A stretch of 32,586 bases of DNA, from the IMG/VR virus record IMGVR_UViG_2690316104_000008, positions 1 to 32,586 of that record; one strand, given 5' to 3'. The notes under the pieces are model-generated. The model searched no databases. It had not been told where the DNA came from and was given only the letters and a program-made list of their open reading frames with translations. A program made the position numbers and the translations under genes. Shown piece by piece: positions 1 to 30,728 of this stretch (its first letter is position 1; each line of letters opens with the position of its first letter). The DNA comes from a virus (Duplodnaviria; Heunggongvirae; Uroviricota; Caudoviricetes).

Positions 1-219
1 TTACATCCACATAATTTGCTGCCCTGACGGCAACGGGTGCGGCCTTACGGCGTGGACTTCTCCCGGCTTCACGATGTATCTCTGTACCGACTCATAGGTG
101 ATGAACGTGGCGCTGCAATTCACGTTCTGGCACTGGTGATAACGCTCTTTTGTCGTGTCAGTGATATAGCGGCTTGTACGCGCATGTGCGGCATGCTGGC
201 ATAAAGGACAATGAAACAT
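1..219 (-). CDS. ogr: Ogr late-gene transcriptional activator (Cys4 zinc finger), 72 aa; the ORF-track entry 1..294 is an upstream in-frame extension
   Basis: Translation from internal Met MFHCPLCQHAAHARTSRYITDTTKERYHQCQNVNCSATF matches my recollection of P2 Ogr; 72 codons plus stop; sits after D as in P2. Confidence 0.9.
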   Translation of the reverse strand: MFHCPLCQHAAHARTSRYITDTTKERYHQCQNVNCSATFITYESVQRYIVKPGEVHAVRPHPLPSGQQIMWM

Positions 220-300
220 CGCGAGCACCTCTTCCGGTTTTGTTGATAGTGCCATTTTAGTTAATTTATCTTTATAAAACAAACAGATAAACAAAAGACA

Positions 301-1464
301 TCACTCATAATCTTCTGTTTCGTACTCCACATCAGAAAGCCTGACCTCAAGCTCCAAGGACGTCGTGAAGCCGCTATTATTCAGAAAATGTGTCACCTTA
401 GTGATTGTCCAGTCCTGCTCGTCTATGACGCGCTTAAAGCCTGACACTCTGACCGGTGTTTCCGTGTAAATATCTGCACGACCGGTAGCCAGGATGATGG
501 AGAACTCCGCAACGCCCCGTTGCAGTTTGTCCCACTTCGCCTGAGCAGCACGCATGGCCTGTGCTTTCGTGGCATATACCGTGGTCAGGGCAAAAACGTT
601 GTCAGCCTCACCGGCCATGTATTCACCTTCGCGCGCTTCCGGTACTTTTGGCGCTTTCTTCTGCCTGACCGGTTTCGCTTTCGGGTGCTCCAGTGCGCGC
701 AGGTGTTTCTCTTTCTTTTTACGTTTCAGTTTTACCTTCTGCTTTTGCGGCTTCGGGTCTTTGGTGTGTAACCACTTTGCCGTTACGCCGGTGTAGGCTC
801 CACGGTCAGCAATCGCAAAATGATGACGGTCGCCGTCGCTGCGGGTGATGGTAATCTGCGGGATTTTTTTACCGCTGGCCGTCACCCCCTGCCCCGCTTT
901 GAGAAACAACAGTTTTCCCATTTTTACCGACACCTCACCGCCGTTGCGTTCAGCAAGGCGGGTCAGGAATTTCGCATCGGACTCCTGCGACTGGTCGATG
1001 TGCGGGATTTTAATTCCGGCCAGTGACGGAGCAACACTGGCTTCCAGCTTGTTACGGGAGGCTATCGCCTCAACAATCGCACCGAGCGTGGTGTCATGCC
1101 ATGAGCCTTCCCGGCGGGAATTGAGCGTCCCGCGAAAATCTGCACTCCGGGCGCGGATGGTGACCACATCCGGCGCGCCCCGGTGTTCAACCTCATCAAC
1201 GGTGAATTTCCCTTTGCATACCAGGGCAAAACCTTTCCAGCCGATATACACCGTCAGGACAGCGCCACGAACCGGCAGCCCGACCTGCCCGTCGGCATCG
1301 TTCAGTTCAATATCAAGCTGGTCAGCCTCAAAGCCCCGGTTATCCGTCAGGGTCATGCTCATCAGACGGTCGCTGATATTGCCGGTAATATCCCTGCTGT
1401 CGAGCATCAGCATGTAATCCGGCGTCAGCGTACTGCCTGCATCAAATGTCAGCGCATCCAGCAT
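301..1464 (-). CDS. D: Tail protein D (late tail gene)
   Basis: 387 aa, same length as P2 gpD; position between ogr and U; basic KPQKQKVKLKRKKKEK linker. Confidence 0.85.
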   Translation of the reverse strand: MLDALTFDAGSTLTPDYMLMLDSRDITGNISDRLMSMTLTDNRGFEADQLDIELNDADGQVGLPVRGAVLTVYIGWKGFALVCKGKFTVDEVEHRGAPDVVTIRARSADFRGTLNSRREGSWHDTTLGAIVEAIASRNKLEASVAPSLAGIKIPHIDQSQESDAKFLTRLAERNGGEVSVKMGKLLFLKAGQGVTASGKKIPQITITRSDGDRHHFAIADRGAYTGVTAKWLHTKDPKPQKQKVKLKRKKKEKHLRALEHPKAKPVRQKKAPKVPEAREGEYMAGEADNVFALTTVYATKAQAMRAAQAKWDKLQRGVAEFSIILATGRADIYTETPVRVSGFKRVIDEQDWTITKVTHFLNNSGFTTSLELEVRLSDVEYETEDYE

Positions 1465-6662: not shown

Positions 6663-7256
6663 CTATTTGTCCCGGTTGGCTAAGGGATGACACAATTTAT
6701 TCTTTGTCGCTGATGAGGGGAATTTTTTATAGAGCGTGGACAGGCCAATATCAAAAATCAGCGCCACACGTTGACGAGATTCCCCCGCAGCCAGCAACCG
6801 TCCGACCTGCTCCCACTCACTCGCGGTGAGTTTCGGACGTCTGCCACCAATACGACCTTTGGCTCTGGCCGCTTCCAGTCCGGCGCGTGTCCGCTCGACA
6901 ATGAGTTCTCGTTCCATTTCAGCCAGGGCACCCATCACATGGAAGAAAAAACGCTCCATCGGCGTGCTGGTATCAATAGCATCCGTCAGGCTGCGAAAAT
7001 TAATGCCGCGTTCGCGCAGTTCCTCAACCAGAATGACCAGATGCCGCATACTACGCCCCAGCCTGTCCAGCTTCCAGACAACCAGAGTGTCACCTTCCGA
7101 TAATGTTCTGAGCAGTTTTTTCAGCCCCGGCCTGTCGGACTTCGTGCCGCTGATTTTATCCTCAAAAATCAGCTCACATCCTGCACACTCCAGCGCATTA
7201 CGCTGCAATTCCGTATTCTGGTCATTTGTTGATACGCGGACATAGCCAATAAGCAT
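6663..7256 (-). CDS. Site-specific DNA invertase, serine recombinase of the Hin/Gin/Cin/Pin family
   Basis: N-terminus MLIGYVRVSTNDQNTELQ with catalytic Ser; resolvase core; C-terminal HTH (GRRPKLTASEWEQVGRLLAAGESRQRVALIFDIGLSTLYKKFP); abuts inverted crossover sites. Confidence 0.9.
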   Translation of the reverse strand: MLIGYVRVSTNDQNTELQRNALECAGCELIFEDKISGTKSDRPGLKKLLRTLSEGDTLVVWKLDRLGRSMRHLVILVEELRERGINFRSLTDAIDTSTPMERFFFHVMGALAEMERELIVERTRAGLEAARAKGRIGGRRPKLTASEWEQVGRLLAAGESRQRVALIFDIGLSTLYKKFPSSATKNKLCHPLANRDK

Positions 7257-7311
7257 GATGGATCCCCTGAATAAAAACCGGGGATGATGCCAGTTATCCG
7301 TAATCTCTGCA

Positions 7312-7337
7312 TTTTCTTAAACGTTGGTTTGGGAGAA
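7312..7337. repeat. Invertase crossover site, left (hix/gix-like); perfect 14-bp arm 7324..7337
   Basis: ttggtttgggagaa at 7324..7337 is the exact reverse complement of ttctcccaaaccaa at 9176..9189. Confidence 0.65.
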
Positions 7338-7679
7338 GCAGCGAAAATGCCTGCTGCGACAGCATTAGCCAGCAGTGCAGGTAACATCACTATTCCAGTA
7401 TTAATTGGTGGAGTACAACGAACAGCATTGCTTCAGTGGAAGACGCTATCAGTGCCGCAATCTACCGACGGTAATATGGTCGTTGTTGATGGCTCATGGC
7501 CGGTTGCCTTTCCTAATGCTTGCCTTTCCATCAATCCTTCGCTGGTCAATTCTGTGATCTACGCGACTAATGGAGCCCCTTTTGTTAGCGCAGCGATTGT
7601 TGACCGGGTCAAATTCAAAGCCGCTTGCGCATACACGAAATCTAATTCAACAGTGGCAGTATGGGGAGTGGGATATTAA
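7338..7679 (+). other. Silent alternative tail-fibre C-terminal cassette (H'), expressed only after inversion
   Basis: Open frame reads through the crossover site as ...VGLGE AAKMPAATALASS..., mirroring ...LGLGE GSALPAG... at the site inside H; no independent start needed. Confidence 0.6.
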
Positions 7680-8122
7680 TGGTCGACTATGTATTCAGCC
7701 CGACGGAAAATGCTTTTTATCTTGTGGCACTGAAATATGATTATTTAACTGCTGGCACATGGCCGTCAGACGGCATCAATATAGATGCTGAAGATGCACT
7801 GGTTTTCATGGGAAACGCTCCTGAGGGTAAAATGCGTGGCATTGGTGATGATGGGTTGCCTTGCTGGGTAGATCTTCCGTCACCTACGCATAAAGAACAA
7901 CTTGCTGCGGCTGACTCAGAGAAAAAGTCGAGAATTGACCATGCCAACGAATACATGAACGGTAAGCAATGGCCTGGTAAAGCAGCTATCGGTCGTCTGA
8001 AAGGTGAGGAACTGGCACAATATAATTTGTGGCTGGATTATCTGGATGCACTGGAAATGGTCGATATTTCCAGTGCTCCAGATATTGAATGGCCTACGCC
8101 TCCGGTAGTTCAGGCCAGATGA
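7679..8122 (+). CDS. Alternative tail fibre assembly protein (Tfa', G-like), inside invertible segment
   Basis: Start overlaps H' stop (TAATG); C-terminal IEWPTPPV motif shared with the minus-strand Tfa (VIWPELPEA); Mu G-segment-like layout. Confidence 0.7.
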   Translation: MVDYVFSPTENAFYLVALKYDYLTAGTWPSDGINIDAEDALVFMGNAPEGKMRGIGDDGLPCWVDLPSPTHKEQLAAADSEKKSRIDHANEYMNGKQWPGKAAIGRLKGEELAQYNLWLDYLDALEMVDISSAPDIEWPTPPVVQAR

Positions 8123-8696
8123 CATCCGGCGCGGTGCTGGTATCTGTTGCCACCACCGCGTCAATGTAATCCAGCACAGCGTTAAGCCGGGTTGTTTCTG
8201 CCTGCGTCAGTTTACGTCCGGCCTGCAATTTCAGCTGAATCAGACTGATGGAAGCCATTGCAGCATCAATCAGTGACTGGCGCTGTGCTTCTGCCGCGTC
8301 TACTGCGGCACCGTGTTGTGCCTCAGTATCTGTCACCCATTTTTCACCATCCCATTTATCGTATGGCGTTAACGTGGCGATAGTGGTTGTTTTTTCGGGG
8401 TAATCACCCGGAGTTGTGATTTCTTTGGCGTCTCCCGTTTCGGTGTTATAGACGATTTCACCGCGATGGTCTGGCACATATTCCCATGAGTTTAAATCTA
8501 TCGAACGGCAGATAGCATAACCAGCCTTATGTGTGCCTGGCGCATCTAAACAGGAACATGCAGGGATACCGACACCCACAGCAAGATATTCATTTGAAGT
8601 GGAAATATATTCCCGGGTTTCACTATCATAGTTATACACTGTAATATTCCCTGCTTTGGTGGCGATAATCTCGCTATTTAATATGGCGTTATCCAT
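8094..8696 (-). CDS. G: Tail fibre assembly protein G (Tfa), currently expressed orientation
   Basis: 200 aa directly downstream of H with ATGA overlap; conserved Tfa C-terminus. Confidence 0.8.
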   Translation of the reverse strand: MDNAILNSEIIATKAGNITVYNYDSETREYISTSNEYLAVGVGIPACSCLDAPGTHKAGYAICRSIDLNSWEYVPDHRGEIVYNTETGDAKEITTPGDYPEKTTTIATLTPYDKWDGEKWVTDTEAQHGAAVDAAEAQRQSLIDAAMASISLIQLKLQAGRKLTQAETTRLNAVLDYIDAVVATDTSTAPDVIWPELPEA

Positions 8697-16788: not shown

Positions 16789-17862
16789 TTACGCTCCCGG
16801 CTCTGCGGTCGCCTTAGCCGGTGTGGAGAAATCACCGACCTTAATTTTTTCCACCAGGCAACCGGCGGCGTAGTCTTCCACCACGTAATCAATGTTCATT
16901 GACTCGTAGTTCTCCACGCGGTCGAGTTTCGGGTTTTCCTCAATCACGCGGCGATGGCTGTCATCCATGTAGTAGATGGACAGGTTTTCCAGCTTTGTGA
17001 TGAGCATCGCATCCGCCGGGAAGTACGGTACGCGTACCGCTGGCAGGTTGCCGATGCGTTTCTGGCTGATGATGACGTCAGCGGCCAGCATTTCGCTGTT
17101 GTCCTGCTCCTTGTTAACGATGGGGAAATACTTGTCCGCCAGTAGCTGACGCCCCACAATCACCACAAGGTCAGGGTCTTCCTGATACCACGGCTCAATC
17201 AGGTTGTTGGTCGCATCCATCACCAGTGCGTCAAGGCTGGCATAATCACCGCCCTTACCCACGCGGATGACCTCAGAGGTGGTGTGCCCTTCCTCGTCAG
17301 TGACCTTGCTCATCACGCGCGCCGGGGCTTCATTGCGGTATTTCTGCAGCCAGCCGACCGCCACATCCTGCAGCATCGGATTGCTGCTGCGGTCAGAGGT
17401 TTCTGCACGCTTCACGCCGTTAAAACCGGCCATGATGAAATCAAGGGACTGGCGTTTGATAATGGCGTTACGGATACGGAGCTGGAAATCCTGATAACGC
17501 GCCCACAGGTCCAGCGTTTTGTAGCGGATATAAAAATCGAAGTTAATCTGGTCGCATTCGTACTTGTTAGACGCCAGCTTCGAGAAGTCCTTCGGCTGAC
17601 GCTCGGTGCCACCGGCGGTGTCGGTGGTGCTGGCGATGGAGCCGGTGACACCGATACCAATTTTTTCCCCTTTCATTTCGCTGACCGGCACAATGTTGAT
17701 GCGGGTCAGAAAGTCAGAGGACTCCTGCATGGTGTTCATCAGGGTCTGGGTGACCGACGGTTCAACGGTGAATTTTTTCGACACATCACCGGCGTCGATG
17801 CCGTTCAGTTCGGCAACACGGGACAGGTAGGCATTAAATTTAAAGCGGGTTTCCTGGCGCAT
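16789..17862 (-). CDS. N: Major capsid protein N
   Basis: 357 aa as P2 gpN; synteny. Confidence 0.9.
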   Translation of the reverse strand: MRQETRFKFNAYLSRVAELNGIDAGDVSKKFTVEPSVTQTLMNTMQESSDFLTRINIVPVSEMKGEKIGIGVTGSIASTTDTAGGTERQPKDFSKLASNKYECDQINFDFYIRYKTLDLWARYQDFQLRIRNAIIKRQSLDFIMAGFNGVKRAETSDRSSNPMLQDVAVGWLQKYRNEAPARVMSKVTDEEGHTTSEVIRVGKGGDYASLDALVMDATNNLIEPWYQEDPDLVVIVGRQLLADKYFPIVNKEQDNSEMLAADVIISQKRIGNLPAVRVPYFPADAMLITKLENLSIYYMDDSHRRVIEENPKLDRVENYESMNIDYVVEDYAAGCLVEKIKVGDFSTPAKATAEPGA

Positions 17863-17920: not shown

Positions 17921-18775
17921 TCAGCAGTTCGTCATCAGGGCGTCACCGCCACCGCCGGTGGCCTTGCTGCGGCGCTGCTGGGTCAGACTTTCGGTGTGGT
18001 CGAGACTGTTTTTCAGGCGGGTGAATGCCTGGCTGGTTTCATCCGCCCTGTCAGTCACCTCCTGCTTAAGTGCGGAAAAGGCGGTTTCCACCTCAGCGAG
18101 GCGCTGCTCAGTGGCGCTCAGTTTTTCCTGCACATGTTCAGCAACAGCGGTCACCGCTTCATGCACGTCATTCAGACGGGCGTCATCGCTGGCCTGTTTG
18201 CGGCCAAAAATGGATTTCACCTTTTCGGTCAGGGCGGTGAACACGGTTTCAGGCAGGTCTTCAAATTCCAGCTCAACAGGCGTTGCCACTGAAATCAGGT
18301 TTTCAGGGCTTAATTTGAAGCGGTTCAGAGGGTTGTGTTTTGCCGTGCGGCAGAATTCCAGGTATTCCGTGCCGAGGCTTGCCGGGTCATCGGTGACGGC
18401 CAGACCCACCAGATAACATTTGCCTGTATTGGCAAAGTTCGGCTGAATTTCCATTGAGGTATAGACCTTCTGCGCGGCCTTGTTCATCGCGATAAGGTCA
18501 TCGGTCGGGGTGATTTTCGCAAACAGCGCCCATTTGCCTTTCAGCGCCGAATCATCGTCAATCTTTTCGGCCTTCAGTTCGGCCACATCGCCATAACGTT
18601 TAAAAATACCGTCAGGCAGGATGCCGCGCAGATGTTCCAGGTTAATGCGGCAACCATAGACACGCGGGTCAAAGGTTTCGGCCATTTCCTGAATATCCTG
18701 CGCACTGATGACACGCCCGTCACAGGTGTCACCCTCAACGCCGATACGAAAGAATTTTGAGACTTTTTTTGCCAT
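17921..18775 (-). CDS. O: Capsid scaffolding protein O, 284 aa
   Basis: From MAKKVSKFFRIG, matching P2 gpO length; synteny; ORF-track start 18841 is an extension. Confidence 0.85.
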   Translation of the reverse strand: MAKKVSKFFRIGVEGDTCDGRVISAQDIQEMAETFDPRVYGCRINLEHLRGILPDGIFKRYGDVAELKAEKIDDDSALKGKWALFAKITPTDDLIAMNKAAQKVYTSMEIQPNFANTGKCYLVGLAVTDDPASLGTEYLEFCRTAKHNPLNRFKLSPENLISVATPVELEFEDLPETVFTALTEKVKSIFGRKQASDDARLNDVHEAVTAVAEHVQEKLSATEQRLAEVETAFSALKQEVTDRADETSQAFTRLKNSLDHTESLTQQRRSKATGGGGDALMTNC

Positions 18776-18948
18776 TGTCAGGAGTCCTGAATAGTGATTA
18801 GAGGAGTCACATGTCGGCATCAGTTTCCCGACGATGCGCATCCTCCGCCATCAGTCCCGGATGGCTTATCACTGACACAACAGCACCTTAGCGAATCGCG
18901 GGGCGCGACTCAGTAGCCTTGCCGTGTATTCATCACGGCGAGGTATTC
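18776..18948. promoter_or_regulatory. Divergent late promoter region for the O-to-L and P-Q operons (expected Ogr-dependent)
   Basis: Intergenic between divergent O and P starts; inferred from P2 organisation, motifs not confirmed. Confidence 0.4.
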
Positions 18949-20721
18949 ATGACCATCACCACAGACACCACTCTTTTACACGACCCGCGTCGTCAGGCGG
19001 CGCTGCTGTACTGGCAGGGGTTTTCCGTGCCGCAGATTGCCGCCATGTTGCAGATGAAACGCCCGACGGTGCAGAGCTGGAAACAGCGCGACGGCTGGGA
19101 CAGTGTTGCCCCCATCAGCCGTGTCGAAATGAGCCTGGAAGCGCGGCTGACCCAGCTCATCATCAAACCGCAGAAAACCGGCGGTGACTTCAAGGAAATT
19201 GACCTGCTCGGACGCCAGATTGAACGACTGGCACGGGTAAACCGCTACAGTCAGACCGGCAACGAGGCAGACCTTAATCCGAACGTCGCTAACCGCAACA
19301 AAGGCGGGCGTCGCAAACCGAAAAAGAATTTTTTCAGTGACGAGGCCATCGAAAAGCTGGAGCAGATTTTCTTTGAGCAGTCTTTCGAATATCAGTTGCA
19401 CTGGTATCGCGCCGGGCTTGAGCACCGCATCCGCGATATCCTGAAATCCCGCCAGATTGGCGCGACGTTTTATTTTTCCCGCGAGGCGCTGCTGCGCGCC
19501 CTGAAAACCGGCCATAACCAGATTTTTCTGTCGGCCAGTAAAACGCAGGCGTATGTGTTCCGCGAATACATCATTGCCTTTGCCCGGCTGGTTGACGTTG
19601 ACCTGACCGGTGACCCGATTGTCCTGGGCAATAACGGTGCAAAACTGATTTTTCTCGGCACCAACTCCAACACCGCACAGAGCCATAACGGCGACCTGTA
19701 CGTCGACGAGATTTTCTGGATCCCGAATTTTCAGGTACTGCGTAAGGTAGCATCAGGTATGGCCTCACAGAGTCACCTGCGCTCGACCTATTTCTCCACC
19801 CCGTCCACGCTGGCGCACGACGCCTACCCGTTCTGGTCAGGTGAACTGTTCAACCGGGGACGCGCCAGCGCCGCCGAACGCGTGGAAATCGACGTCAGTC
19901 ATAACGCCCTTGCCGGTGGTCTTCTCTGTGCGGACGGCCAGTGGCGGCAGATTGTCACCATTGAGGATGCCCTGAAAGGTGGCTGCACACTGTTCGACAT
20001 TGAGCAGCTCAAACGTGAAAACAGCGCCGACGATTTTAAAAACCTGTTCATGTGTGAATTTGTTGACGACAAGGCGTCGGTGTTCCCGTTCGAGGAGCTG
20101 CAACGCTGCATGGTCGACACGCTGGAAGAATGGGAAGACTATGCGCCGTTTGCCGCCAATCCGTTCGGCTCACGTCCGGTATGGATTGGTTACGACCCGT
20201 CACACCGTGGCGACAGTGCCGGATGCGTGGTGCTGGCACCGCCGGTGGTGGCCGGTGGCAAATTCAGAATACTTGAGCGTCACCAGTGGAAAGGCATGGA
20301 CTTTGCCACCCAGGCTGAATCCATCCGCAAACTCACCGAAAAATACAACGTCGAATACATCGGAATTGATGCCACCGGCCTCGGTGTCGGCGTGTTCCAG
20401 CTCGTTCGCTCGTTCTATCCCGCCGCGCGCGATATCCGCTACACGCCGGAAATGAAAACCGCAATGGTGCTCAAGGCAAAAGACGTTATTCGCCGTGGCT
20501 GTCTGGAATATGACGTCAGCGCCACCGACATCACCAGCTCGTTTATGGCTATCCGCAAGACCATGACCAGCAGCGGACGCAGCGCCACCTATGAGGCCAG
20601 CCGCAGCGAGGAAGCCAGCCACGCCGACCTCGCCTGGGCGACCATGCACGCCCTGTTAAATGAGCCACTCACCGCCGGTATCAGCACCCCGCTGACATCC
20701 ACCATTCTGGAGTTTTACTGA
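18949..20721 (+). CDS. P: Terminase large (ATPase) subunit P, 590 aa
   Basis: From MTITTDTT with GAGGT ribosome-binding site; length as P2 gpP; synteny. Confidence 0.9.
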   Translation: MTITTDTTLLHDPRRQAALLYWQGFSVPQIAAMLQMKRPTVQSWKQRDGWDSVAPISRVEMSLEARLTQLIIKPQKTGGDFKEIDLLGRQIERLARVNRYSQTGNEADLNPNVANRNKGGRRKPKKNFFSDEAIEKLEQIFFEQSFEYQLHWYRAGLEHRIRDILKSRQIGATFYFSREALLRALKTGHNQIFLSASKTQAYVFREYIIAFARLVDVDLTGDPIVLGNNGAKLIFLGTNSNTAQSHNGDLYVDEIFWIPNFQVLRKVASGMASQSHLRSTYFSTPSTLAHDAYPFWSGELFNRGRASAAERVEIDVSHNALAGGLLCADGQWRQIVTIEDALKGGCTLFDIEQLKRENSADDFKNLFMCEFVDDKASVFPFEELQRCMVDTLEEWEDYAPFAANPFGSRPVWIGYDPSHRGDSAGCVVLAPPVVAGGKFRILERHQWKGMDFATQAESIRKLTEKYNVEYIGIDATGLGVGVFQLVRSFYPAARDIRYTPEMKTAMVLKAKDVIRRGCLEYDVSATDITSSFMAIRKTMTSSGRSATYEASRSEEASHADLAWATMHALLNEPLTAGISTPLTSTILEFY

Positions 20722-21755
20722 TGAGCAAGAAAAAAGGGAAAACACCGCAACCTGCGGCAAAAAAAATGACCGCCAGCGCCCCGAAAATGGAGGCATTCAC
20801 CTTTGGTGAACCGGTGCCGGTACTCGACCGCCGTGACATTCTGGATTACGTCGAGTGCATCAGTAACGGCAGATGGTATGAGCCACCGGTCAGCTTTACC
20901 GGTCTGGCAAAAAGTCTGCGTGCTGCCGTACATCACAGCTCACCGATTTACGTCAAACGTAATATTCTGGCTTCAACGTTTATTCCGCACCCGTGGCTTT
21001 CCCAGCAGGATTTCAGCCGCTTTGTGCTGGATTTTCTGGTATTTGGTAATGCGTTTCTGGAAAAGCGTTACAGCACCACCGGTAAGGTCATCAGACTGGA
21101 AACCTCACCGGCAAAATATACCCGCCGTGGCGTGGAGGAGGATGTTTACTGGTGGGTGCCGTCCTTCAACGAGCCGACAGCCTTCGCGCCCGGCTCCGTG
21201 TTTCACCTGCTGGAGCCGGATATCAATCAGGAGCTGTACGGCCTGCCGGAATATCTCAGCGCCCTTAACTCTGCCTGGCTGAATGAGTCGGCCACGCTGT
21301 TCCGCCGCAAGTATTACGAAAACGGCGCACATGCCGGATACATCATGTACGTCACTGATGCCGTGCAGGATCGCAACGATATCGAAATGCTCCGCGAAAA
21401 CATGGTGAAGTCGAAAGGCCGCAATAACTTTAAAAACCTGTTTCTCTATGCCCCACAGGGAAAAGCCGACGGCATTAAAATTATCCCGCTCAGTGAAGTG
21501 GCCACGAAGGACGATTTTTTTAATATCAAAAAAGCCAGCGCCGCTGACCTGCTGGACGCGCACCGCATCCCCTTTCAGTTGATGGGCGGCAAGCCGGAAA
21601 ACGTCGGGTCGCTGGGCGATATTGAGAAAGTGGCAAAGGTCTTTGTCCGCAATGAACTTATCCCGTTACAGGACAGGATTCGGGAAATAAACGGCTGGCT
21701 CGGTCAGGAGGTCATCCGCTTTAAAAACTACTCACTGGACACTGACAACGGCTGA
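20721..21755 (+). CDS. Q: Portal protein Q
   Basis: 344 aa as P2 gpQ; TGATG overlap with P. Confidence 0.9.
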   Translation: MSKKKGKTPQPAAKKMTASAPKMEAFTFGEPVPVLDRRDILDYVECISNGRWYEPPVSFTGLAKSLRAAVHHSSPIYVKRNILASTFIPHPWLSQQDFSRFVLDFLVFGNAFLEKRYSTTGKVIRLETSPAKYTRRGVEEDVYWWVPSFNEPTAFAPGSVFHLLEPDINQELYGLPEYLSALNSAWLNESATLFRRKYYENGAHAGYIMYVTDAVQDRNDIEMLRENMVKSKGRNNFKNLFLYAPQGKADGIKIIPLSEVATKDDFFNIKKASAADLLDAHRIPFQLMGGKPENVGSLGDIEKVAKVFVRNELIPLQDRIREINGWLGQEVIRFKNYSLDTDNG

Positions 21756-21924: not shown

Positions 21925-21943
21925 GTGCTTTCCCCGCCTCGCC
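21925..21943. other. cos cohesive-end site (19 nt)
   Basis: gtgctttccccgcctcgcc is the reverse complement of the P2 cohesive end GGCGAGGCGGGGAAAGCAC as I recall it; adjacent to Q as expected. Confidence 0.75.
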
Positions 21944-22171: not shown

Positions 22172-23638
22172 ATGGTAAACATATCTATAAGTAATCACAC
22201 AGATGGAACTAAAATAACTATGGCAAACGATATCATCGAAGCTTTTCCTGCAAAACGTTTCTTTGTAGAAATGTTAACCAGGGATATCGAACTCCAAGAT
22301 GCTATTCTTGACTTATTAGACAACTGTCTTGATGGCGCTCTTCGTTCCATTTCATCATCGAATGAAGAAATAAACGAAGAAAATAAATACCACGGTTTTT
22401 ACTCAAAAATAAATTTTAATGAAGATGGTTTTACAATTGAAGATAATTGTGGCGGAATTTCGGGAAGCTTAGCAACAAGCTATGCTTTCCGAATGGGAAG
22501 ACCAAATGAAAGAGACATAGATAATATCCCAACCATTGGTGTTTATGGGATAGGTATGAAGCGAGCTATTTTTAAGTTGGGCACTTCATCGCAAGTATTA
22601 AGTAAAACAAAAGACGAGGAATTTAAAGTTACAATTTCTCCAGAATGGTTATCCAATGATAAAAACTGGAAACTAGATCTCGAACGTGGTAATGTCGATT
22701 TAAAAACAACGGGCGTAAAAATTATAGTTAACGATCTCAGAGACGATGTAAAAAACCATTTCAAAGTTGATCGTGATTTTCAACAAAAATTAATCAATTC
22801 TGTTTCAAACCATTATAGCCTAATTCTTAATAAAGGTTTCAAGGTCTATATTAATGATATAGAAGTCAAGCCAAATCTGACATCATTAATTATCGATACC
22901 GAAGCTCTTGTGTCAGCGAAAAAAGGTGGTATCACGCCTTATTTTTACAGAGGTGAAACTAATGGAGTTTCAATAAAGATCGCAGTTGGATTCTATAGAG
23001 ATTTTGTGACAGAAGATGAGGAAAATTCATTCCTTACTGGACGTAACACTTCCGAGAAAGCCGGATGGACTATTATCTGCAATGATCGTGTTGTTGTTCA
23101 TGCGGACAAGACACGTCTTACCGGATGGGGTGAAGCAGGAGTTCCACAATATCATACACAATTTGTTGGAATTGCAGGCGTAGCTATTTTTACATCTAAT
23201 GAAGCTGAAAAATTACCTATTACTACTACCAAGAGAGGCATTGATGGTAATTCTGATATCTATTTGGCTACTAAAGATTTCATGCGTGAAGGCTTGAAAA
23301 TATTTACAGATTTTACTAACAGATGGAAAAGTAACTCTCCAGAACGCCAGCAAATGTTTAGTTCCACATCTAAAACAATTCCTCTTACAAACGACAAACT
23401 AGATAGCATAGTACCTGAAGATAAATGGTCTCGGGTGCATAGATCCATTGGTGGGAATAGTTTCAAACCAACATTGCCAATACCTAAAGAAACAGACCCT
23501 TTAAAGCAAATAAAATTTAGTAGAAGATTGAGTGAGATAAAAACTGTTGCCACTTTCATTTTCGATGATGATTCTGTTCCTCCGACAGAAATTGGTAATT
23601 ATTGCTTTGAAGATTTTTTAGAGAGGGCAAAAAAATGA
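22172..23638 (+). CDS. MORC-like GHKL-superfamily ATPase (Bergerat fold) with about 300-aa C-terminal region of unknown function; alternative start at 22220
   Basis: N box DLLDNCLDGAL, G1 box EDNCGGISG, G2 box IGVYGIGMKRAIFKLG (MORC-type G-YG-G-K); AT-rich. Confidence 0.6.
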   Translation: MVNISISNHTDGTKITMANDIIEAFPAKRFFVEMLTRDIELQDAILDLLDNCLDGALRSISSSNEEINEENKYHGFYSKINFNEDGFTIEDNCGGISGSLATSYAFRMGRPNERDIDNIPTIGVYGIGMKRAIFKLGTSSQVLSKTKDEEFKVTISPEWLSNDKNWKLDLERGNVDLKTTGVKIIVNDLRDDVKNHFKVDRDFQQKLINSVSNHYSLILNKGFKVYINDIEVKPNLTSLIIDTEALVSAKKGGITPYFYRGETNGVSIKIAVGFYRDFVTEDEENSFLTGRNTSEKAGWTIICNDRVVVHADKTRLTGWGEAGVPQYHTQFVGIAGVAIFTSNEAEKLPITTTKRGIDGNSDIYLATKDFMREGLKIFTDFTNRWKSNSPERQQMFSSTSKTIPLTNDKLDSIVPEDKWSRVHRSIGGNSFKPTLPIPKETDPLKQIKFSRRLSEIKTVATFIFDDDSVPPTEIGNYCFEDFLERAKK

Positions 23639-24627
23639 GTACTGGGGGAAGTATTCCTTATCATCTTCGACAACACAAAGCTGTCGAAAGAAATCTATTC
23701 ATTGAGTTGCTCAGAAAACTCAACAACTATGTAAACATATCCGATTATGTTTATATCGGGTTTGGTGGCCCTTTTCTAGAAGACTTCAAACAACTGCATA
23801 ATGCTTTAAAAATCAATAACATGATCTCTCTAGAGGTAGATGCTAACGTTCATAAACGACAAAAATTTAACAAACCTATATCATGTATTGATTTAGGAGA
23901 AGAACCTTTAAGTAGCAGTGAATTTATTACTCAAAGCGACTTCGCTGCACCTTCTCTAATTTGGCTTGACTATGCCATACCAAGCCAAATATATGAGCAA
24001 ATGAATGACATTGCTCAATTGGTAAGTAAGTTAAAGCCAAAAGATATATTTAAAATAACTTTAAATGCAACTCCTGAAACTTTAGGAAGAGATTTTCAAG
24101 AAAGAGACCCTAGGCGTTTTCGATTAAAAAAAATACAATCTTTACTTACTCAAGATTATTGCCCAGTGAATCTAACTGTTGATGATGTCACTTTTAAAAG
24201 GTACCCACACCTTTTAATAAAAGCAGCTCAACGTGCCATAAGTATTGGATTAACAGGTAGACTAGATATAATGATCCATCCTTTATGTAATTTTATTTAC
24301 AAAGATGGTCAGCAAATGCTTACCTTTACTGCCATTGTTCTCGAAAACAGTGATATGCAATTAGATAGCTTCCTTCAAAATTCTCGAATTAATTTTTGGC
24401 CCTTTTATTCTGGAGACTGGGGCACCGTCAAAAACATTAGTGTTCCCACGATGTCTTTACGTGAGAGAATCTTTATTGAGGAACGACTTCCTACAAAAGA
24501 CCATGAAGAAATTACCAACGACCTCGGCTTTTACATTGGAGATGATGAAGCCGAGGCTAATAGTAACCTTAAAAACTTTATTGAGTATTACAAAGTAATT
24601 CCGTGGTATTCGAAAGTTCTTCTTTAG
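23635..24627 (+). CDS. Hypothetical protein, 330 aa, translationally coupled partner of the GHKL ATPase
   Basis: ATGA overlap with upstream gene; AT-rich; no motif I can recognise. Confidence 0.5.
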   Translation: MSTGGSIPYHLRQHKAVERNLFIELLRKLNNYVNISDYVYIGFGGPFLEDFKQLHNALKINNMISLEVDANVHKRQKFNKPISCIDLGEEPLSSSEFITQSDFAAPSLIWLDYAIPSQIYEQMNDIAQLVSKLKPKDIFKITLNATPETLGRDFQERDPRRFRLKKIQSLLTQDYCPVNLTVDDVTFKRYPHLLIKAAQRAISIGLTGRLDIMIHPLCNFIYKDGQQMLTFTAIVLENSDMQLDSFLQNSRINFWPFYSGDWGTVKNISVPTMSLRERIFIEERLPTKDHEEITNDLGFYIGDDEAEANSNLKNFIEYYKVIPWYSKVLL

Positions 24628-25729
24628 AAAACTGACATAATTTATATAACGGTAATAGCATAGCTTCAGCTACTAATGGGCTAACGCTATTACCGATTTG
24701 CCTGAAACTATGCCACTTAGTAGGGTGAAACCTAAACCAATCAGGAAAACCTTGTAATCGAGCAGCCTCACGTGGAGTAATAACTCTAGCCTGCGTTGGA
24801 TGGATCGGCCTAACTGCTTGATAACTGCCCTTATCGCTGCCAGTTCCAGCCCTTAGCGTCGGACAGAAACCATTTGGATTTAACCTCTGAGATCGTGAAA
24901 TTTTATCAGTTTCGCCAAAAGAGAGTTTTTTATATCTATTAATAACCTCATCTGTATGTATTGTTCCCAAGAAACCGGAGACCAACCCTTTTTTTAATTT
25001 TTCTAAAGATTCCGGATCACCAACATTATTCGGAACATTACTCCAAAGTCTATCAAAAAAATATCCTTGCCTATCCATCTTAACTTCACGCCAGCCTTGT
25101 TCCTCTTGCTGCCATTCTTTTCTTATAACACGAGGAATACCGTATAAAGCATCTTTAACTAAGGTTTGCTCAATATCTTGCACAGGAAAGAAATCAGATT
25201 CTTTTAAACAATTAGCTAATTCCTTTTTGAATCCGATAAAAAAAATCCTAGTTCTAGTTGTAGGAGCTCCATAATTAGACGCATTCACTTTTATTGGGCT
25301 CAATATTACATATCGGTCTTTTACTAATGAGAATGCTTTTTCTCTAACTGCATCATATTTTTCATTCATTATCCCAGGAACATTCTCTGCCAAGAAACAA
25401 ACAGGTGATAACTCGCTCACCAACCTAAAAAAATGAATATACAATTCATTTCTGACGTCATTAGCCATCCCTTTACCAATTGTACTAAATCCCTGACAAG
25501 GTGGTCCACCGATGACACAATCAATATTACTAACATTACAAGCTGTTAGAATATCATGAGCAGAAAGTTTGCTAACATCTTTATGTAAATGTGTTGAATT
25601 TGGGAAATTAAGAGCATGGGAAAATATTGCATGCTTATCCAACTCAACGGCACCAACCAAGTTAAAGCCTGCCCGTGATGCTCCCAAGCTTAAACCACCT
25701 ACCCCTGAGTATAAATCAACCACATTCAT
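24578..25729 (-). CDS. DNA (cytosine-5)-methyltransferase
   Basis: Motif I DLYSGVGG, motif IV GGPPCQGFS, motif VI ENV, C-terminal GNSV. Confidence 0.9.
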   Translation of the reverse strand: MNVVDLYSGVGGLSLGASRAGFNLVGAVELDKHAIFSHALNFPNSTHLHKDVSKLSAHDILTACNVSNIDCVIGGPPCQGFSTIGKGMANDVRNELYIHFFRLVSELSPVCFLAENVPGIMNEKYDAVREKAFSLVKDRYVILSPIKVNASNYGAPTTRTRIFFIGFKKELANCLKESDFFPVQDIEQTLVKDALYGIPRVIRKEWQQEEQGWREVKMDRQGYFFDRLWSNVPNNVGDPESLEKLKKGLVSGFLGTIHTDEVINRYKKLSFGETDKISRSQRLNPNGFCPTLRAGTGSDKGSYQAVRPIHPTQARVITPREAARLQGFPDWFRFHPTKWHSFRQIGNSVSPLVAEAMLLPLYKLCQFSKEELSNTTELLCNTQ

Positions 25730-25779: not shown

Positions 25780-28080
25780 TTACTTGAGCTCTTTGCTGAA
25801 GTACTCATTACTAAAACCCTGCCACTCATCGACATTACTTGCCACATACTTATATTTTTTATCATCGAATATCACCATCGCACCACGCGCCAGCGCCTCA
25901 AGCTCCCATCGCTGTGGCCTGATACCGTTCTGAGCAAGGTCAACGCGGATACGGGTAATTTGCATTCGTTCCGACCGGGTCAGTCTGGCCGATGGCGCTA
26001 TTTCATGCGGTTTTAACGGGCTTCCGTTTCTTTGCTGACGGTTTGGTCTTCTCAGACCGTGTTTTAATGCACCTCTGAGCGCCCTCACGACCTCCTGGTC
26101 ATTCCATTTGATAACACCGCCATCTACCAGATTAAGCACTGCTACGGCGTGTTCAGAAGGCGTGGGAGCCGGTGACGAAGTATCACCACCGGTGAGCTTT
26201 CCACAGTTATTGACAGGACTCCGAGGCGCGGCGATGCCGCTTTTTAAAGTCAAAGGCTCCACGACCGGAACTTTCGGAACAATGCGCCAGTCCGTCGTTC
26301 TGGTGATATGAATATGACGCGCGCCGAGATGCGGCGCGTAAATGCCGACCACTCTCTCGACTTCTTCCTCGTACTCGTTAACTTCATCCGACGGGCTACG
26401 GGCAACCCTGACAGTCTGACAATCGCGCGGAACATTTGCCCCACCCTGCGCGCTGATATACAACGCAAAATCACCACTGTCTGCGGCAGCGCGAGCAGCC
26501 TCGACGCGTTCGTCAAACTCATCAGCAATACTGACGCCGCGAGGCAATTTGCGTAGTTCACGGTAAGCCCCCATTGTCGGCAGGCCAACCGTTTTAAATT
26601 GTGGAATGCGCCACGTTGACGCCCATGCGGTAACAGCCGCGGCAGTGTCTTTCAGCGGCCTGCCGGTATCGTTATCGAGCTGACCATCCAGTGCATAGCC
26701 GTCGATGTTTTTTGAAATGTATTTCGCGATATATCCCGCAGCACCGCCCCGGTTAAGGTGTTTTGCCTGAAAACGGTTTCGCGCAGCTCCTCTTTCGTCA
26801 CCATCCTCTTTGAGCGCATAGCGACGCATGATTTCGATAATCTGATTACGCTGGCGTGGATTACAAAAAAGCATCATATGCCAGTGCGGCGTTCCGTCGT
26901 GGTGTGGCTCGACGACACGCAAACCGTAGACCTGTAAATCATTATCCTTGAATGCCGTGCGCATCAGGCTCCAGATGCGGCAGAGATAACGCTGCGCATC
27001 CTTTGGATTAAATGCCTCATCGTTCCAGCCGTGATTTAGCTGGACGGTTTTACTTTCGCCTTTTCCGACCTGACGTGTCGGGTGATACTTTGACGGCGCG
27101 GTCAGCGTGATAAACATCCCCACATCACCCTCTGCGGCGGCGTAACGCTCAATACCGGCAATGGTGTTCATCAGCTCCATCCGGCGAATTTCAGGATTAG
27201 AAATACTTCCCATCACCTTACTGATAAGGTCGATGCGCTCGCCGGTTTCCCTGTTTTCAAGGTCACACGATTTAAGAAATTCCAGATTTGCCTGGCGGCG
27301 CGCACGCACATCACGAATGGCATGTTTACTGGCATAAGGAGAACGGTCTTTATTGACCTCCCCGACAGCAATCAGTAACGCTTCATGCCAGCGCATACGT
27401 TGACCTTTAAGCTGATGAGTCCACCACTCATCGTTAAACAGGCGGGCAATGGCAGAATATGCCTGCCTCGTGGTCATCTGTCCTTTACGGTATTTTTTCC
27501 AGTAAAGCGGGGAAATATTGAAAGCACGTGCAGCGCCAGCAACATGACCATACAGGTGAGCCTGAGCCTCATCCGTAAACAGTGATTCTTTTTCGCCATG
27601 CGCATCCACCCAGGCATCGCTGAGTTCCTCATACATCATGAAAAGCTGCGATGAGATACGGGCGGCAAACTTTTTCAGCTCCTTGTCATTCATCCCCGGC
27701 AGACGCGCATAATGGTCACGCTCTGCCAGAAACAGCAACGACGCGTCGGTGTTCATTTCATGGCGCTGATTCACACGTTCAATGCGCGGCCATAAACGAC
27801 GCTGAAAAGTGGATGTGAGGAAATAAAACCCGTGTACCGGGCTTTTATTGCGCCGGATGTAGTCATAGCGTGAAGTAAACAGCGAGCGCAAAAAGTAAGG
27901 CAGGCGGTTAATCGTGGATAAAACACCTTGCACCTGACGCATCTCGTCACGTGTAAGGGGTCTTTCGCGCCCGACAGCCTCGCGTGGCGCGTTCCATGCA
28001 TAAGCACCGGTAAACGCCTTACCGGTGCCTGCGGCAAATGCTGATGGAGGGACAAAACGCCCGGAGGCTTTAACGGCCAT
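25780..28080 (-). CDS. A: Replication initiation protein A (rolling-circle nickase)
   Basis: From MAVKASGRFVPPSAF, matching remembered P2 gpA N-terminus; HUH-type region EPHHDGTPHWHMMLF; ORF-track start 28122 is an extension. Confidence 0.9.
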   Translation of the reverse strand: MAVKASGRFVPPSAFAAGTGKAFTGAYAWNAPREAVGRERPLTRDEMRQVQGVLSTINRLPYFLRSLFTSRYDYIRRNKSPVHGFYFLTSTFQRRLWPRIERVNQRHEMNTDASLLFLAERDHYARLPGMNDKELKKFAARISSQLFMMYEELSDAWVDAHGEKESLFTDEAQAHLYGHVAGAARAFNISPLYWKKYRKGQMTTRQAYSAIARLFNDEWWTHQLKGQRMRWHEALLIAVGEVNKDRSPYASKHAIRDVRARRQANLEFLKSCDLENRETGERIDLISKVMGSISNPEIRRMELMNTIAGIERYAAAEGDVGMFITLTAPSKYHPTRQVGKGESKTVQLNHGWNDEAFNPKDAQRYLCRIWSLMRTAFKDNDLQVYGLRVVEPHHDGTPHWHMMLFCNPRQRNQIIEIMRRYALKEDGDERGAARNRFQAKHLNRGGAAGYIAKYISKNIDGYALDGQLDNDTGRPLKDTAAAVTAWASTWRIPQFKTVGLPTMGAYRELRKLPRGVSIADEFDERVEAARAAADSGDFALYISAQGGANVPRDCQTVRVARSPSDEVNEYEEEVERVVGIYAPHLGARHIHITRTTDWRIVPKVPVVEPLTLKSGIAAPRSPVNNCGKLTGGDTSSPAPTPSEHAVAVLNLVDGGVIKWNDQEVVRALRGALKHGLRRPNRQQRNGSPLKPHEIAPSARLTRSERMQITRIRVDLAQNGIRPQRWELEALARGAMVIFDDKKYKYVASNVDEWQGFSNEYFSKELK

Positions 28081-28345
28081 ATGAGCCAAAAGCCTCTGAA
28101 CAACGCTTGCTGAGTTGCTCAACCTGCGCGTTTAAATCAGCAAAAGACTTTGCGCTTCCGGTCAGAATATCGTGATGCATCATGCCGGAAACGAGCTGGC
28201 TTAATTTCGGGTAATAACCAACCACCGACAGCCATTCCTGACCGGCGTTTTTACCGCTTTCCGCTCTCTTTTTCTCGTGGAGAATAAACTGAAAGCTGTC
28301 ACTGGTAACGACATAACGTTCGCCAATTTCAATACGAATACTCAT
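28070..28345 (-). CDS. Hypothetical early protein (P2 orf83 position)
   Basis: 91-aa ORF between the zinc-finger ORF and A; synteny only. Confidence 0.55.
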   Translation of the reverse strand: MSIRIEIGERYVVTSDSFQFILHEKKRAESGKNAGQEWLSVVGYYPKLSQLVSGMMHHDILTGSAKSFADLNAQVEQLSKRCSEAFGSYGR

Positions 28346-29155: not shown

Positions 29156-29656
29156 TTAATGCAGATATTGCTCTGGTTTTACCGACGTCAGAATTGTCGG
29201 TGCATACTCAAACAGGCTGAATAATTCACGTAATGCACGGAATAAGGCATCACGCCAGTAACATGATTCTTCATTAATTCGCCAGTATGGCTGGTTGAAT
29301 TCTTTTTCAGTCAATCCGGCATGCATAAATAAAGTACGGCGCTGACTGACAGTTAAAAAGCTAATATATGCATACTCACTTGCACCGACCTGACGGCGTT
29401 TTGAGAATGCCCCACGCAGTTCATCAATTGCACAAACCAGCCGTTCACGTTCGACGTCGTTCATTTCTTCAAAACGCATCGTTGCGTGACGCTGTTTTAA
29501 CTGCGCATGGAAGCAAACCGTTAGCCGTTCGCGTTCCATCATCTGATTATAATAATCGCATGTCTCCTGCCAGCGAGGGACGGCCAGATGCTTACCAATT
29601 ATCCGGCGCATAGCTGCTGGCTGTTTTTCAACGAGATTGAGCGTCATCACTGTCAT
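29156..29656 (-). CDS. B: Replication protein B (helicase-loading)
   Basis: 166 aa starting MTVMTLNLVEKQPAAMRR, matching remembered P2 gpB. Confidence 0.85.
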   Translation of the reverse strand: MTVMTLNLVEKQPAAMRRIIGKHLAVPRWQETCDYYNQMMERERLTVCFHAQLKQRHATMRFEEMNDVERERLVCAIDELRGAFSKRRQVGASEYAYISFLTVSQRRTLFMHAGLTEKEFNQPYWRINEESCYWRDALFRALRELFSLFEYAPTILTSVKPEQYLH

Positions 29657-30131: not shown

Positions 30132-30728
30132 TCAATCTACTTTGCGCCATGAGTATTTTTGCATTCCTGGCGCATATTTTTCTACAGCATTAATAATACT
30201 CAGCGCATCAAATTCGCTATAACCTTTTTCGTCATCCGATAACTTTGATACTCCGTAGTACACATGACCGATAAACCTGTCATTTTCATAACAAGCTCTA
30301 CAGTATAGAGTCACATAGTTGCGTAATGGGGTTAGCTCGCAACCAATAATAGAAAGATCACCAAAACGCAAAATCTCAAATTTACTTGATTTGCTTCTTT
30401 TTGTTTTAGTTGGGGCTTGTTGATTCTGGCTGATTAACGCAAATGACTCTTGTAAATTATTTATAATCTCATTACGTTCATCTCTTTTGTTATTTTCCAG
30501 CCTGACACATCCACATTTAATTAAATGCGTCAAAGTCTCAATTTCTGCAGCTCTTACAGGTAAAGCCAGAAAATTAACTTCTTCTTCTAATTTTTTCGCT
30601 TCAATTTCTATGTCATCAACTATGGCTGATACGTTAGATTGCCCTTCAATCGACAAAAGTCTCGTGCGCAGCTCGATGATCAACGATTGAATTTTTTTAG
30701 CTGCCGCGTTTCCTACTATAGTGTTCAT
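30132..30728 (-). CDS. Hypothetical protein, 198 aa, AT-rich cargo gene inserted between cox and B
   Basis: Long ORF with atypically low GC; no P2 counterpart at this position as far as I recall. Confidence 0.55.
   Translation of the reverse strand: MNTIVGNAAAKKIQSLIIELRTRLLSIEGQSNVSAIVDDIEIEAKKLEEEVNFLALPVRAAEIETLTHLIKCGCVRLENNKRDERNEIINNLQESFALISQNQQAPTKTKRSKSSKFEILRFGDLSIIGCELTPLRNYVTLYCRACYENDRFIGHVYYGVSKLSDDEKGYSEFDALSIINAVEKYAPGMQKYSWRKVD

Follow-up and report, generated by a model that had tools for sequence, protein, structure and literature searches.

Bacterial MORC proteins were predicted in 2008 to be part of restriction-modification (R-M) operons, in a wholly computational study (Iyer, Abhiman & Aravind, PMC2292703). 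According to that study, about 70% of the MORC operons described carry a superfamily II (SF-II) helicase and a nuclease, and the role proposed for MORC is an ATP-driven reorganisation, with looping between recognition and cleavage sites. Here we analyse a gene for a MORC-type ATPase in a P2-like Escherichia coli prophage (IMG/VR record IMGVR_UViG_2690316104_000008, positions 1 to 32,586; this whole stretch of 32,586 nucleotides (nt) is called the window in the following). The MORC gene is directly followed by a gene for a protein of Pfam family PF20553, here called the partner, and by a gene for a C5 cytosine DNA methyltransferase (Dcm) on the opposite strand. The first of these genes very probably encodes a MORC-type ATPase, and the three genes (the trio) probably make up a mobile defence or exclusion cassette. 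Both statements taken together are somewhat less secure than either, and we still favour them.

The window protein shares with the prokaryotic MORCs of Iyer et al. the GHKL plus S5 architecture and the MORC-specific S5 motif. The cassette shares with them the link to a cytosine methylase, the frequent presence of Vsr, the occasional presence of a paraMORC1-like GHKL protein and an HNH nuclease, and a patchy, mobile distribution. Helicase and nuclease are common in the operons of that study, whereas the window cassette has neither. In its accessible part the constant PF20553 partner is not mentioned, and locations in P2, lambdoid and Pf prophages are not described. The neighbourhoods of the cassette match a minority class listed there, in which a methylase stands alone or is joined by a second GHKL protein, by HNH or by both, and the helicase is lacking. 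The methylase or R-M neighbourhood that is typical for the MORC family is present at our loci, and the SF-II helicase is absent. Our literature search found no description of the constant PF20553 partner, of the nuclease-free core, of a single co-inherited Dcm clade or of the prophage locations.

A previous reading of this DNA from its letters alone (the sequence-only reading) had described the MORC protein as a product of 488 amino acids (aa) with the N, G1 and G2 boxes of a GHKL ATPase in this order. The open reading frame (ORF) is real, but its start was probably placed too far upstream. Homologues are mostly 465-474 aa long, and PGAP annotates a protein of 474 aa in a sister prophage. The alignment of PHROG 20521 begins at residue 15, and in the structural model residues 1-24 have a predicted local distance difference test (pLDDT) value below 50. 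Translation therefore probably begins at the ATG at 22220 (M17), giving a protein of 472 aa. The boxes themselves, for which positions are listed in Table 1, were confirmed. The Pfam model HATPase_c_3 matches residues 40-169 with 39 bits (cut-off 25, E value 1e-9), and the N, G1 and G2 boxes are followed by motif IV in the expected order. An alignment of 49 homologues (49-75% identity) shows that D47, D50, N51, D54, G55, D91, N92, G94, G95, G123, Y125, G126, G128 and K130 are kept in all of them. Ten of these positions (D47, N51, D54, D91, G94, G95, G123, G126, G128 and K130) are the ones that contact Mg-ATP in GHKL proteins.

From this alignment an AlphaFold2 model of the protein was built (pLDDT 83, predicted template modelling score 0.77), in which the N-terminal domain forms the alpha/beta sandwich of the Bergerat fold. 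The register of the motifs agrees with known GHKL proteins. With hhalign, D47, N51 and D54 fall on E29, N33 and D36 of MutL, and D91 falls on D58, with weak statistics and a consistent register, while HMMER aligned the G1 and G2 boxes to those of MORC3 and MORC4. A further hhalign comparison, with a sequence that we take to be human MORC2, gave colinear N, G1 and G2 boxes (E 0.008) and is used as a lead only. A search of the PDB with the single 488-aa sequence gave no match at E <=1. The family profile retrieved MORC3 and MORC4 alone, at E values that are not significant (0.2-0.4). The G2 box of the form G-x-Y-G-x-G-x-K had been called typical of MORC and MutL-like ATPases. The match to MORC stands, but the MutL part of the statement is looser: the G2 box of MutL reads G-F-R-G-E-A-L and has no lysine. 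The MORC protein presumably hydrolyses ATP.

The sequence-only reading had further assumed that about 300 aa at the C-terminus carry no recognisable motif and may be a DNA-binding or nuclease effector. This view did not hold. Residues ~222-385 form an S5 transducer domain, since the structural matches to MORC, MutL and SMCHD1 span 280-316 residues, and only residues ~386-488 are additional. An S5 domain with a conserved basic residue thus lies directly after the GHKL domain, and K354 in the invariant T-T-T-K-R-G motif is presumably the phosphate-sensing lysine. The domain also contains the MORC signature, defined as G-h-X-h-h-p-X-X-R-h-l in PMC2292703. All 49 alignment members carry the signature, as do 121 of the 123 homologues from trio loci, and it arose by chance in 64 of 20,000 shuffled sequences (0.3%). 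The model places it within a beta-hairpin (strands 298-303 and 306-312), with the lysine motif further downstream, and judged by pattern and motif order this position would be equivalent to that in eukaryotic MORCs. A profile of the S5 region gave only chance matches in the PDB, and Pfam at E <=10 returned no S5, MutL or Morc6_S5 model for any of the 49 members. The S5 assignment rests on fold and motif, because no sequence model recognises the domain. In the C-terminal extension, where pLDDT is mostly 75-94 and a stretch KPxLPxPKExDPxKQIKFSR is conserved, the invariant residues are G428, P433, L435, P436, P438, G475 and F479. Each of them is Gly, Pro, Leu or Phe, and neither a cluster of acidic or histidine residues nor a hint of a nuclease was seen.

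Comparison of the model with solved structures gave a score of 22.4 for the mouse MORC3 ATPase (288 residues aligned), 19.1 for SMCHD1, 18.6 for MORC2, 16.2 for TRAP1, 15.8 for MutL and about 15 for the ATPases of Type II and Type VI topoisomerases, while the best histidine kinase reached 5.9. Foldseek ranked chains of Hsp90 and TRAP1 first (E ~1e-15) and MORC3 47th (E 3e-13), and did not single out MORC. On the model, the structures alone point to a GHL-type two-domain ATPase and not to a kinase. We make the narrower call of a MORC protein because of the S5 signature motif and of the family profile, which retrieves only MORC3 and MORC4. That the protein might instead be an Hsp90-like chaperone or a sensor histidine kinase finds some backing in the Foldseek ranking and in the fact that 14 of the 49 family members also touch Pfam HATPase_c. 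This explanation, already disfavoured, is extremely unlikely in view of the signature motif, the PDB matches of the profile and a gene context of DNA methylation, and no Hsp90 C-terminal domain was found either. None of the features of a sensor kinase (HisKA/DHp domain, kinase-type lid, transmembrane or sensor domains) was present. Pfam returned neither HisKA nor any other phospho-acceptor domain, and no 20-residue window of the protein holds more than 12 hydrophobic residues, so that no transmembrane segment is predicted. The earlier statement that this is a MORC-type protein and no sensor kinase, lacking phospho-acceptor domain and membrane segment, is in agreement with these data.

The solved structures that match the model best across GHKL and S5 alike are those of the eukaryotic MORC3, MORC2 and MORC4 proteins and of SMCHD1. 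The G2 box of MORC3, G-x-x-G-x-G-x-K-x-x-x-x-x-L-G, is nearly the same as that of the window protein, and the S5 signature and a functional association with cytosine methylation are common to both. In contrast to eukaryotic MORCs, with which it has only 14-19% identity, the window protein lacks a CW zinc finger, a coiled coil and an SMC hinge, its general base is Asp, and Dcm and the partner are encoded by the same cassette. It also differs from MutL, since it lacks the C-terminal dimerisation/endonuclease domain, carries a MORC-type S5 motif and does not match Pfam DNA_mis_repair.

The start of the partner gene overlaps the MORC stop codon by 4 nt, an arrangement of translational coupling. 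The partner has the features of a class I methyltransferase: a Rossmann fold, a glycine-rich motif I (glycine loop G44-G45), an acidic residue after beta-2 (E67 at its end) and a motif IV, with D112 at the end of beta-4. Among 52 aligned members (28-50% identity) K15, R19, Y40, D50, R75, W110, D112, T142, Y222 and E277 are invariant, and G44, G45 and E67 are conserved in at least 90%. To judge from these residues, the protein may well have a working pocket for S-adenosylmethionine (SAM), with which the pattern is compatible. Its family shows little variety and few members: when 1.84 billion representatives were searched exhaustively, 1,993 clusters were obtained, and the best 150 of them consist nearly entirely of stand-alone proteins of ~315-350 aa.

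In structure the partner comes closest to enzymes that methylate tRNA and rRNA (Trm1, RlmI/RlmO, TYW2, RlmJ and RsmD-like proteins). Together with the conserved SAM-binding residues this could indicate abortive infection, in which MORC would sense foreign DNA or a phage protein and activate the partner as a translation-stopping RNA methyltransferase, with Dcm as self-marker or accessory. Such a function is very improbable, since no link at the level of sequence connects the partner to RlmJ or to any solved methyltransferase, and the strong linkage to one clade of DNA methyltransferases and to Vsr points to DNA. The partner profile retrieved nothing meaningful from the PDB even at E <=10, and no sequence relationship to Trm1, RlmI/RlmO or RlmJ was detectable. 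Motif IV of the partner is W-L-D-Y instead of DPPY or DPFG, and the protein has an insertion and a helical C-terminal domain of its own. An RlmJ-like m6A methyltransferase with the N-terminal Y/H/K motif was considered and rejected: hhalign against E. coli RlmJ showed no relationship, and H10 is not conserved among diverse members of the partner family.

Dcm appears to be intact, as the PCQ, ENV and GNSV motifs are present in the alignment. It matches PDB entry 3g7u ('Cytosine-specific methyltransferase') over nearly its full length (E 2.5e-156), an entry which we take to be the methyltransferase of CP-933R from E. coli O157:H7 EDL933. The partner gene and the Dcm gene point towards each other and share 50 nt at their 3′ ends (24578-24627). 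The overlap may permit control of both arms by antisense RNA or transcriptional interference. A promoter scan gave no result above the shuffled background. No endonuclease domain was found in MORC, the partner or the intergenic ORFs. An intact-looking methyltransferase without a detectable endonuclease domain distinguishes the locus from a classical Type II R-M system.

In order to see whether the three genes form a unit, we surveyed their neighbourhoods. Relatives were present in 457 genomes, of which the best 80 species-level loci were examined (all counts out of 80 refer to these), and 66 viral contigs were taken from IMG/VR. The partner lies directly downstream of MORC at 71 of the 80 loci, Dcm is found within 4 kb at 63, and the trio is complete at 59. 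Among the viral contigs 64 carry the trio, 20 of them in a gpQ-[trio]-gpA arrangement with MORC identities of 62-100%. At 109 of 122 other trio loci Dcm belongs to one clade, defined by at least 40% identity over at least 80% of the window Dcm. Measured against the window proteins, the median identity is highest for Dcm (56%), the slowest-evolving component, and lower for MORC (45%) and the partner (38%), and the identities of MORC and partner co-vary (Spearman 0.73). No nuclease or helicase belongs to the conserved core of the trio.

The tight co-inheritance with one Dcm clade is what is expected from a cognate pair of restriction enzyme and methyltransferase, and the MORC-partner complex itself might cut unmethylated DNA by a cryptic nuclease. 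Candidate sites would be the polar residues of the S5 domain (C303-N-D-R, D312-K313, E321 and H328) or a site in the partner. The number of invariant polar residues in S5 far exceeds what a plain transducer needs, and GHKL plus S5 modules have repeatedly been joined to nucleases (the MutL C-terminal domain, topoisomerases and paraMORC3). We nevertheless regard a true restriction enzyme of this kind as unlikely: neither profiles nor folds match any nuclease, the fold of the partner is that of a methyltransferase, nothing but Gly, Pro, Leu and Phe is invariant in the C-terminal extension, and the MORC-partner pair occurs without a nearby Dcm at about 12 of the 80 loci.

Additional genes accompany the trio at some loci. 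Vsr is present at 26 of the 80 loci, but is missing from 58 of the 66 viral loci and from the window. An HNH_2 nuclease was seen at 4 of the 80 genomic loci and at 1 of the 66 viral loci. A second GHKL protein (546-574 aa) occurs at 7 of the 80 loci, where it always adjoins Dcm and is sometimes accompanied by the HNH_2 nuclease. It fits the description of 'paraMORC1' by Iyer et al. One of these proteins was seen to combine a Hypoth_Ymh C-terminal domain with a MORC-like motif, GLYFICNDRVI. The adjacent Vsr, and a parallel between MORC and MutL in mismatch repair and very-short-patch repair drawn in PMC2292703, could also mean that MORC is a MutL analogue that aids the repair of T:G mismatches arising from deaminated 5-methylcytosine (5mC). 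This is very unlikely indeed, considering the lack of Vsr at most viral loci and in the window, the occurrence of the pair without Dcm and inside DISARM operons, and a rapid divergence and hotspot location that do not suit a repair function.

The pair without a nearby Dcm is mostly cyanobacterial and lies between unrelated housekeeping genes. Because of these loci, either the MORC-partner pair would not be obligatorily lethal in the absence of an adjacent Dcm, or Dcm would act in trans. A search of the cyanobacterial pair-only loci for a conserved third gene, be it a nuclease or an alternative methylase, found none among their neighbours, which have housekeeping functions. In cyanobacterial metagenome-assembled genomes a small subclade of the MORC homologue (483-518 aa) is even without the PF20553 partner. 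These partnerless genes were seen at a conserved site after the genes for CinA, dehydroquinase II, MiaE and a GNAT acetyltransferase. In some cases a Dcm follows, and in some the gene faces a UvrD-type helicase.

The pair, with overlapping frames, was also found inside class-1 DISARM operons, on a plasmid of Microvirga terrae (NZ_CP102847.1) and on one viral contig. It is flanked by the genes for DrmMI, an MmeI-like adenine methylase, and for the helicase DrmA, and DrmD lies upstream of it. DISARM and BREX can be likened to the cassette in its proposed function: self DNA is marked by a methyltransferase, DNA that lacks the mark is the target of ATPases, and a nuclease is either missing or not essential. 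In contrast to these systems, the window has no DrmA, DrmB, DrmD, PglZ, BrxC or BrxL, and the cassette comprises three genes in 3.6 kb. MZA (Gao et al. 2020, as cited in PMC9523054) likewise has a GHKL ATPase, MzaB, in a defence context. An identity of the window protein with MzaB was rejected: NF041932 scored 14.5 bits against a cut-off of 850, PADLOC gave no Mza match, and the neighbours are only PF20553 and Dcm. Two further candidates for a relationship were discarded as well, WonAB of V. cholerae (an unrelated ABC ATPase with a PD-(D/E)xK nuclease) and Ambrosia, which has a different architecture (HATPase, REC, HNH and an N6 methyltransferase).

The window has the Pfam gene content and the cos sequence of a P2-like E. 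coli prophage. The site 21925-21943 is compared in Table 1 with GGCGAGGCGGGGAAAGCAC, which we take to be the P2 cos sequence. The trio is the cargo of the cos-proximal gpQ-gpA defence hotspot of this prophage. In P2 itself this region is the slot of old and tin (PMC9122126). The slot is the same but the proteins are unrelated, as P2 old consists of an ATPase and a TOPRIM nuclease domain. The GC content of the cargo is 35.9%, compared to 56.5% for the structural genes to its left and 46.4% for the early region to its right, a difference that would fit a recent uptake from a donor of low GC content. The main text of two papers on the P2/P4 hotspots does not mention the cassette. The context of methyltransferase-fold partner and Dcm and the location in the P2 hotspot were missed in the sequence-only reading.

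Some relative occurs in 222 of 5426 complete E. coli genomes. The exact window cargo is present in 3 of them and a 67%-identical variant in about 46, the sole inspected example of which sits in the P2 hotspot. The remaining ~170 relatives match over only 195 nt, and the O157:H7 strain EDL933 is among them (NZ_CP008957.1, 2157907-2161406). It carries the trio as a moron in a lambdoid prophage, presumably CP-933R, where gene order and convergent overlap are as in the window. Identities to the window proteins are 64% for Dcm, 41% for MORC and 34% for the partner. The convergent overlap of partner and Dcm genes was also seen at many other loci. The filamentous Pf phage PfAC20 of P. aeruginosa (PP058144.1) carries the trio as a moron as well, with 34% identity for MORC and a partner recognised by hhalign at a probability of 100%. 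In the Pf study it is listed as an incomplete R-M system with a cytosine methyltransferase only (PMC11878078).

Carriage by P2-like, lambdoid and filamentous phages, and the listing of the PfAC20 Dcm as a lone methylase, would also suit a module that benefits the phage: Dcm would methylate phage DNA against host restriction, and MORC and the partner would load, stimulate or regulate it. Orphan methyltransferases are common in phages, and eukaryotic MORCs assist de novo DNA methylation. Mouse MORC1 has been linked to the silencing of DNA-methylated transposons (PMC4268658). We consider this explanation improbable: ordinary chromosomal islands make up most of the species-level loci, DISARM operons can contain the pair, the trio also occurs together with Vsr, HNH or the second GHKL protein, and MORC and the partner evolve faster than Dcm, which is typical of components in an arms race.

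Table 1. Positions of the cassette genes, of the domains and motifs of the MORC protein and of the neighbouring prophage genes in the window.
Feature	Position (nt)	Residues	Strand	Basis or remark
MORC-family GHKL ATPase gene	22172-23638		+	longest ORF, 488 aa
Bergerat-fold GHKL ATP-binding domain	22244-22834	~25-221	+	Pfam, invariance, MutL/MORC3 alignments
N box DLLDNCLDGAL	22310-22342	47-57	+	D47-x3-N51
G1 box EDNCGGISG	22439-22465	90-98	+	D91-N-C-G-G
G2 box IGVYGIGMKRAIFKLG	22535-22582	122-137	+	G123-V-Y-G-I-G-M-K130
Motif IV G181-(T/V)	22706-22729		+	T/V182 variable among 49 homologues
S5-fold transducer domain	22835-23326	~222-385	+	fold and motif
MORC signature G298-W-T-I-I-C-N-D-R-V-V	23063-23095	298-308	+	sole match in protein
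T-T-T-K354-R-G	23222-23254		+	invariant
C-terminal extension	23327-23635	~386-488	+	small alpha/beta plus helical domain
Partner gene, 330 aa	23635-24627		+	Pfam PF20553 'Methyltransf_35', E 3e-84; class I SAM-methyltransferase fold
C5 cytosine DNA methyltransferase (Dcm) gene, 383 aa	24578-25729		-	Pfam DNA_methylase, E 9e-58; PADLOC MTase_II, E 8e-95
Cargo (three genes)	22172-25729			between cos and gpA
Capsid gene	16789-17862		-	P2-like prophage gene order
Scaffold gene	17921-18841		-	P2-like prophage gene order
Terminase gene	18919-20721		+	P2-like prophage gene order
Portal gpQ, left hotspot border	20721-21755		+	Pfam Phage_portal, E 3e-14; "phage portal protein" in E. coli genomes
P2-type cos cohesive-end sequence	21925-21943			exact match to reverse complement of GGCGAGGCGGGGAAAGCAC
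Replication protein gpA, right hotspot border	25780-28122		-	Pfam Phage_GPA, E 7e-124

Outside the cargo, a Hin/Cin-type serine invertase (6663-7256, minus strand; Resolvase and HTH_7 domains) adjoins a C-terminal tail-fibre fragment on the opposite strand (7284-7679, plus strand; Gp53-like_C), and each strand also carries genes for tail-fibre assembly (7661-8122, plus; 8094-8696, minus). The region 6663-8696 looks like an invertible host-range switch at Z/fun, the second variable locus of P2. Two ORFs of the early region, 29156-29656 (minus strand, 166 aa) and 30132-30728 (minus strand, 198 aa), had no Pfam match at E <=0.001.

The position in the P2 hotspot, the low GC content of the cargo, the trio on P2-like, lambdoid and filamentous phages, the pair inside DISARM, and Vsr, HNH or the second GHKL protein at some loci place the cassette in a defence context. 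We infer that MORC and the partner form a complex, that the trio serves defence, that 5mC gates its activity and that it acts on DNA in one of the ways described in the following. The cassette would most likely be a methylation-gated, R-M-like exclusion system. Dcm would mark the resident DNA at its target site. The MORC-partner complex would survey DNA, and on unmarked DNA the binding of ATP would close the MORC dimer into a clamp, as is known for MutL, Hsp90 and the eukaryotic MORCs. The SAM-binding partner could be the base-reading or modifying subunit. The clamped complex would then immobilise or compact the invading DNA and in this way block replication or packaging, or, alternatively, the invading DNA would be handed to a nuclease encoded elsewhere. 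This clamp mechanism is a tentative proposal, possible rather than probable in the form given here. It matches the role put forward for MORC by Iyer et al. and the precedent of BREX and DISARM.

Several observations weigh against a methylation-gated defence cassette built around a MORC ATPase. A restriction step is not visible: the conserved core has no nuclease or helicase, and the HNH_2 nuclease is as rare as described above. The pair occurs without Dcm at the mostly cyanobacterial loci, no Dcm is annotated in the Microvirga stretch, and the neighbouring methylase of the pair embedded in DISARM is of the N6-adenine type. The P2 hotspot hosts non-defence cargo as well. PADLOC has no model for the MORC or the partner protein, and neither PADLOC nor NCBIfam nor PHROGs gives a functional name for the two. 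Our literature search found no experimental study of this cassette or of any bacterial MORC. The Foldseek ranking speaks against the MORC call in particular, as does the N box, in which the general-base position is Asp (D47, 22310-22321) in all 49 family members. MutL, Hsp90, GyrB and eukaryotic MORCs have Glu at this position. Judged by this residue, ATP turnover may be slow, atypical or switch-like.

The finding is a correct classification within an already predicted protein family. Its value is that it points to a compact cassette that is absent from PADLOC, and that is present in a defence hotspot and in O157:H7. The RefSeq names "ATP-binding protein" and "O-methyltransferase" conceal a conserved three-gene unit. 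The cassette measures only 3.6 kb, and its site is a defence hotspot that has been validated in a family of well-studied coliphages; it offers a tractable test for the function of a bacterial MORC and for methylation-gated defence without a dedicated nuclease.

A more far-reaching form of the proposal is nuclease-free 'epigenetic silencing'. Dcm would mark self, and the MORC dimer, directed by its SAM-binding partner with the methyltransferase fold, would topologically clamp and compact unmarked DNA without cutting, so that replication or expression of the invading phage DNA is shut down. The system would be of the direct ancestor type of eukaryotic silencing by MORC and DNA methyltransferases. 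We consider this form doubtful. Human MORC3 is antiviral against herpesviruses, and if the silencing reading is true, the antiviral role of MORC would have been inherited from prokaryotic immunity, and a new effector principle would be defined for a defence system of three genes that E. coli O157:H7 also carries. The cassette would then link bacterial immunity to MORC silencing and antiviral restriction in eukaryotes.

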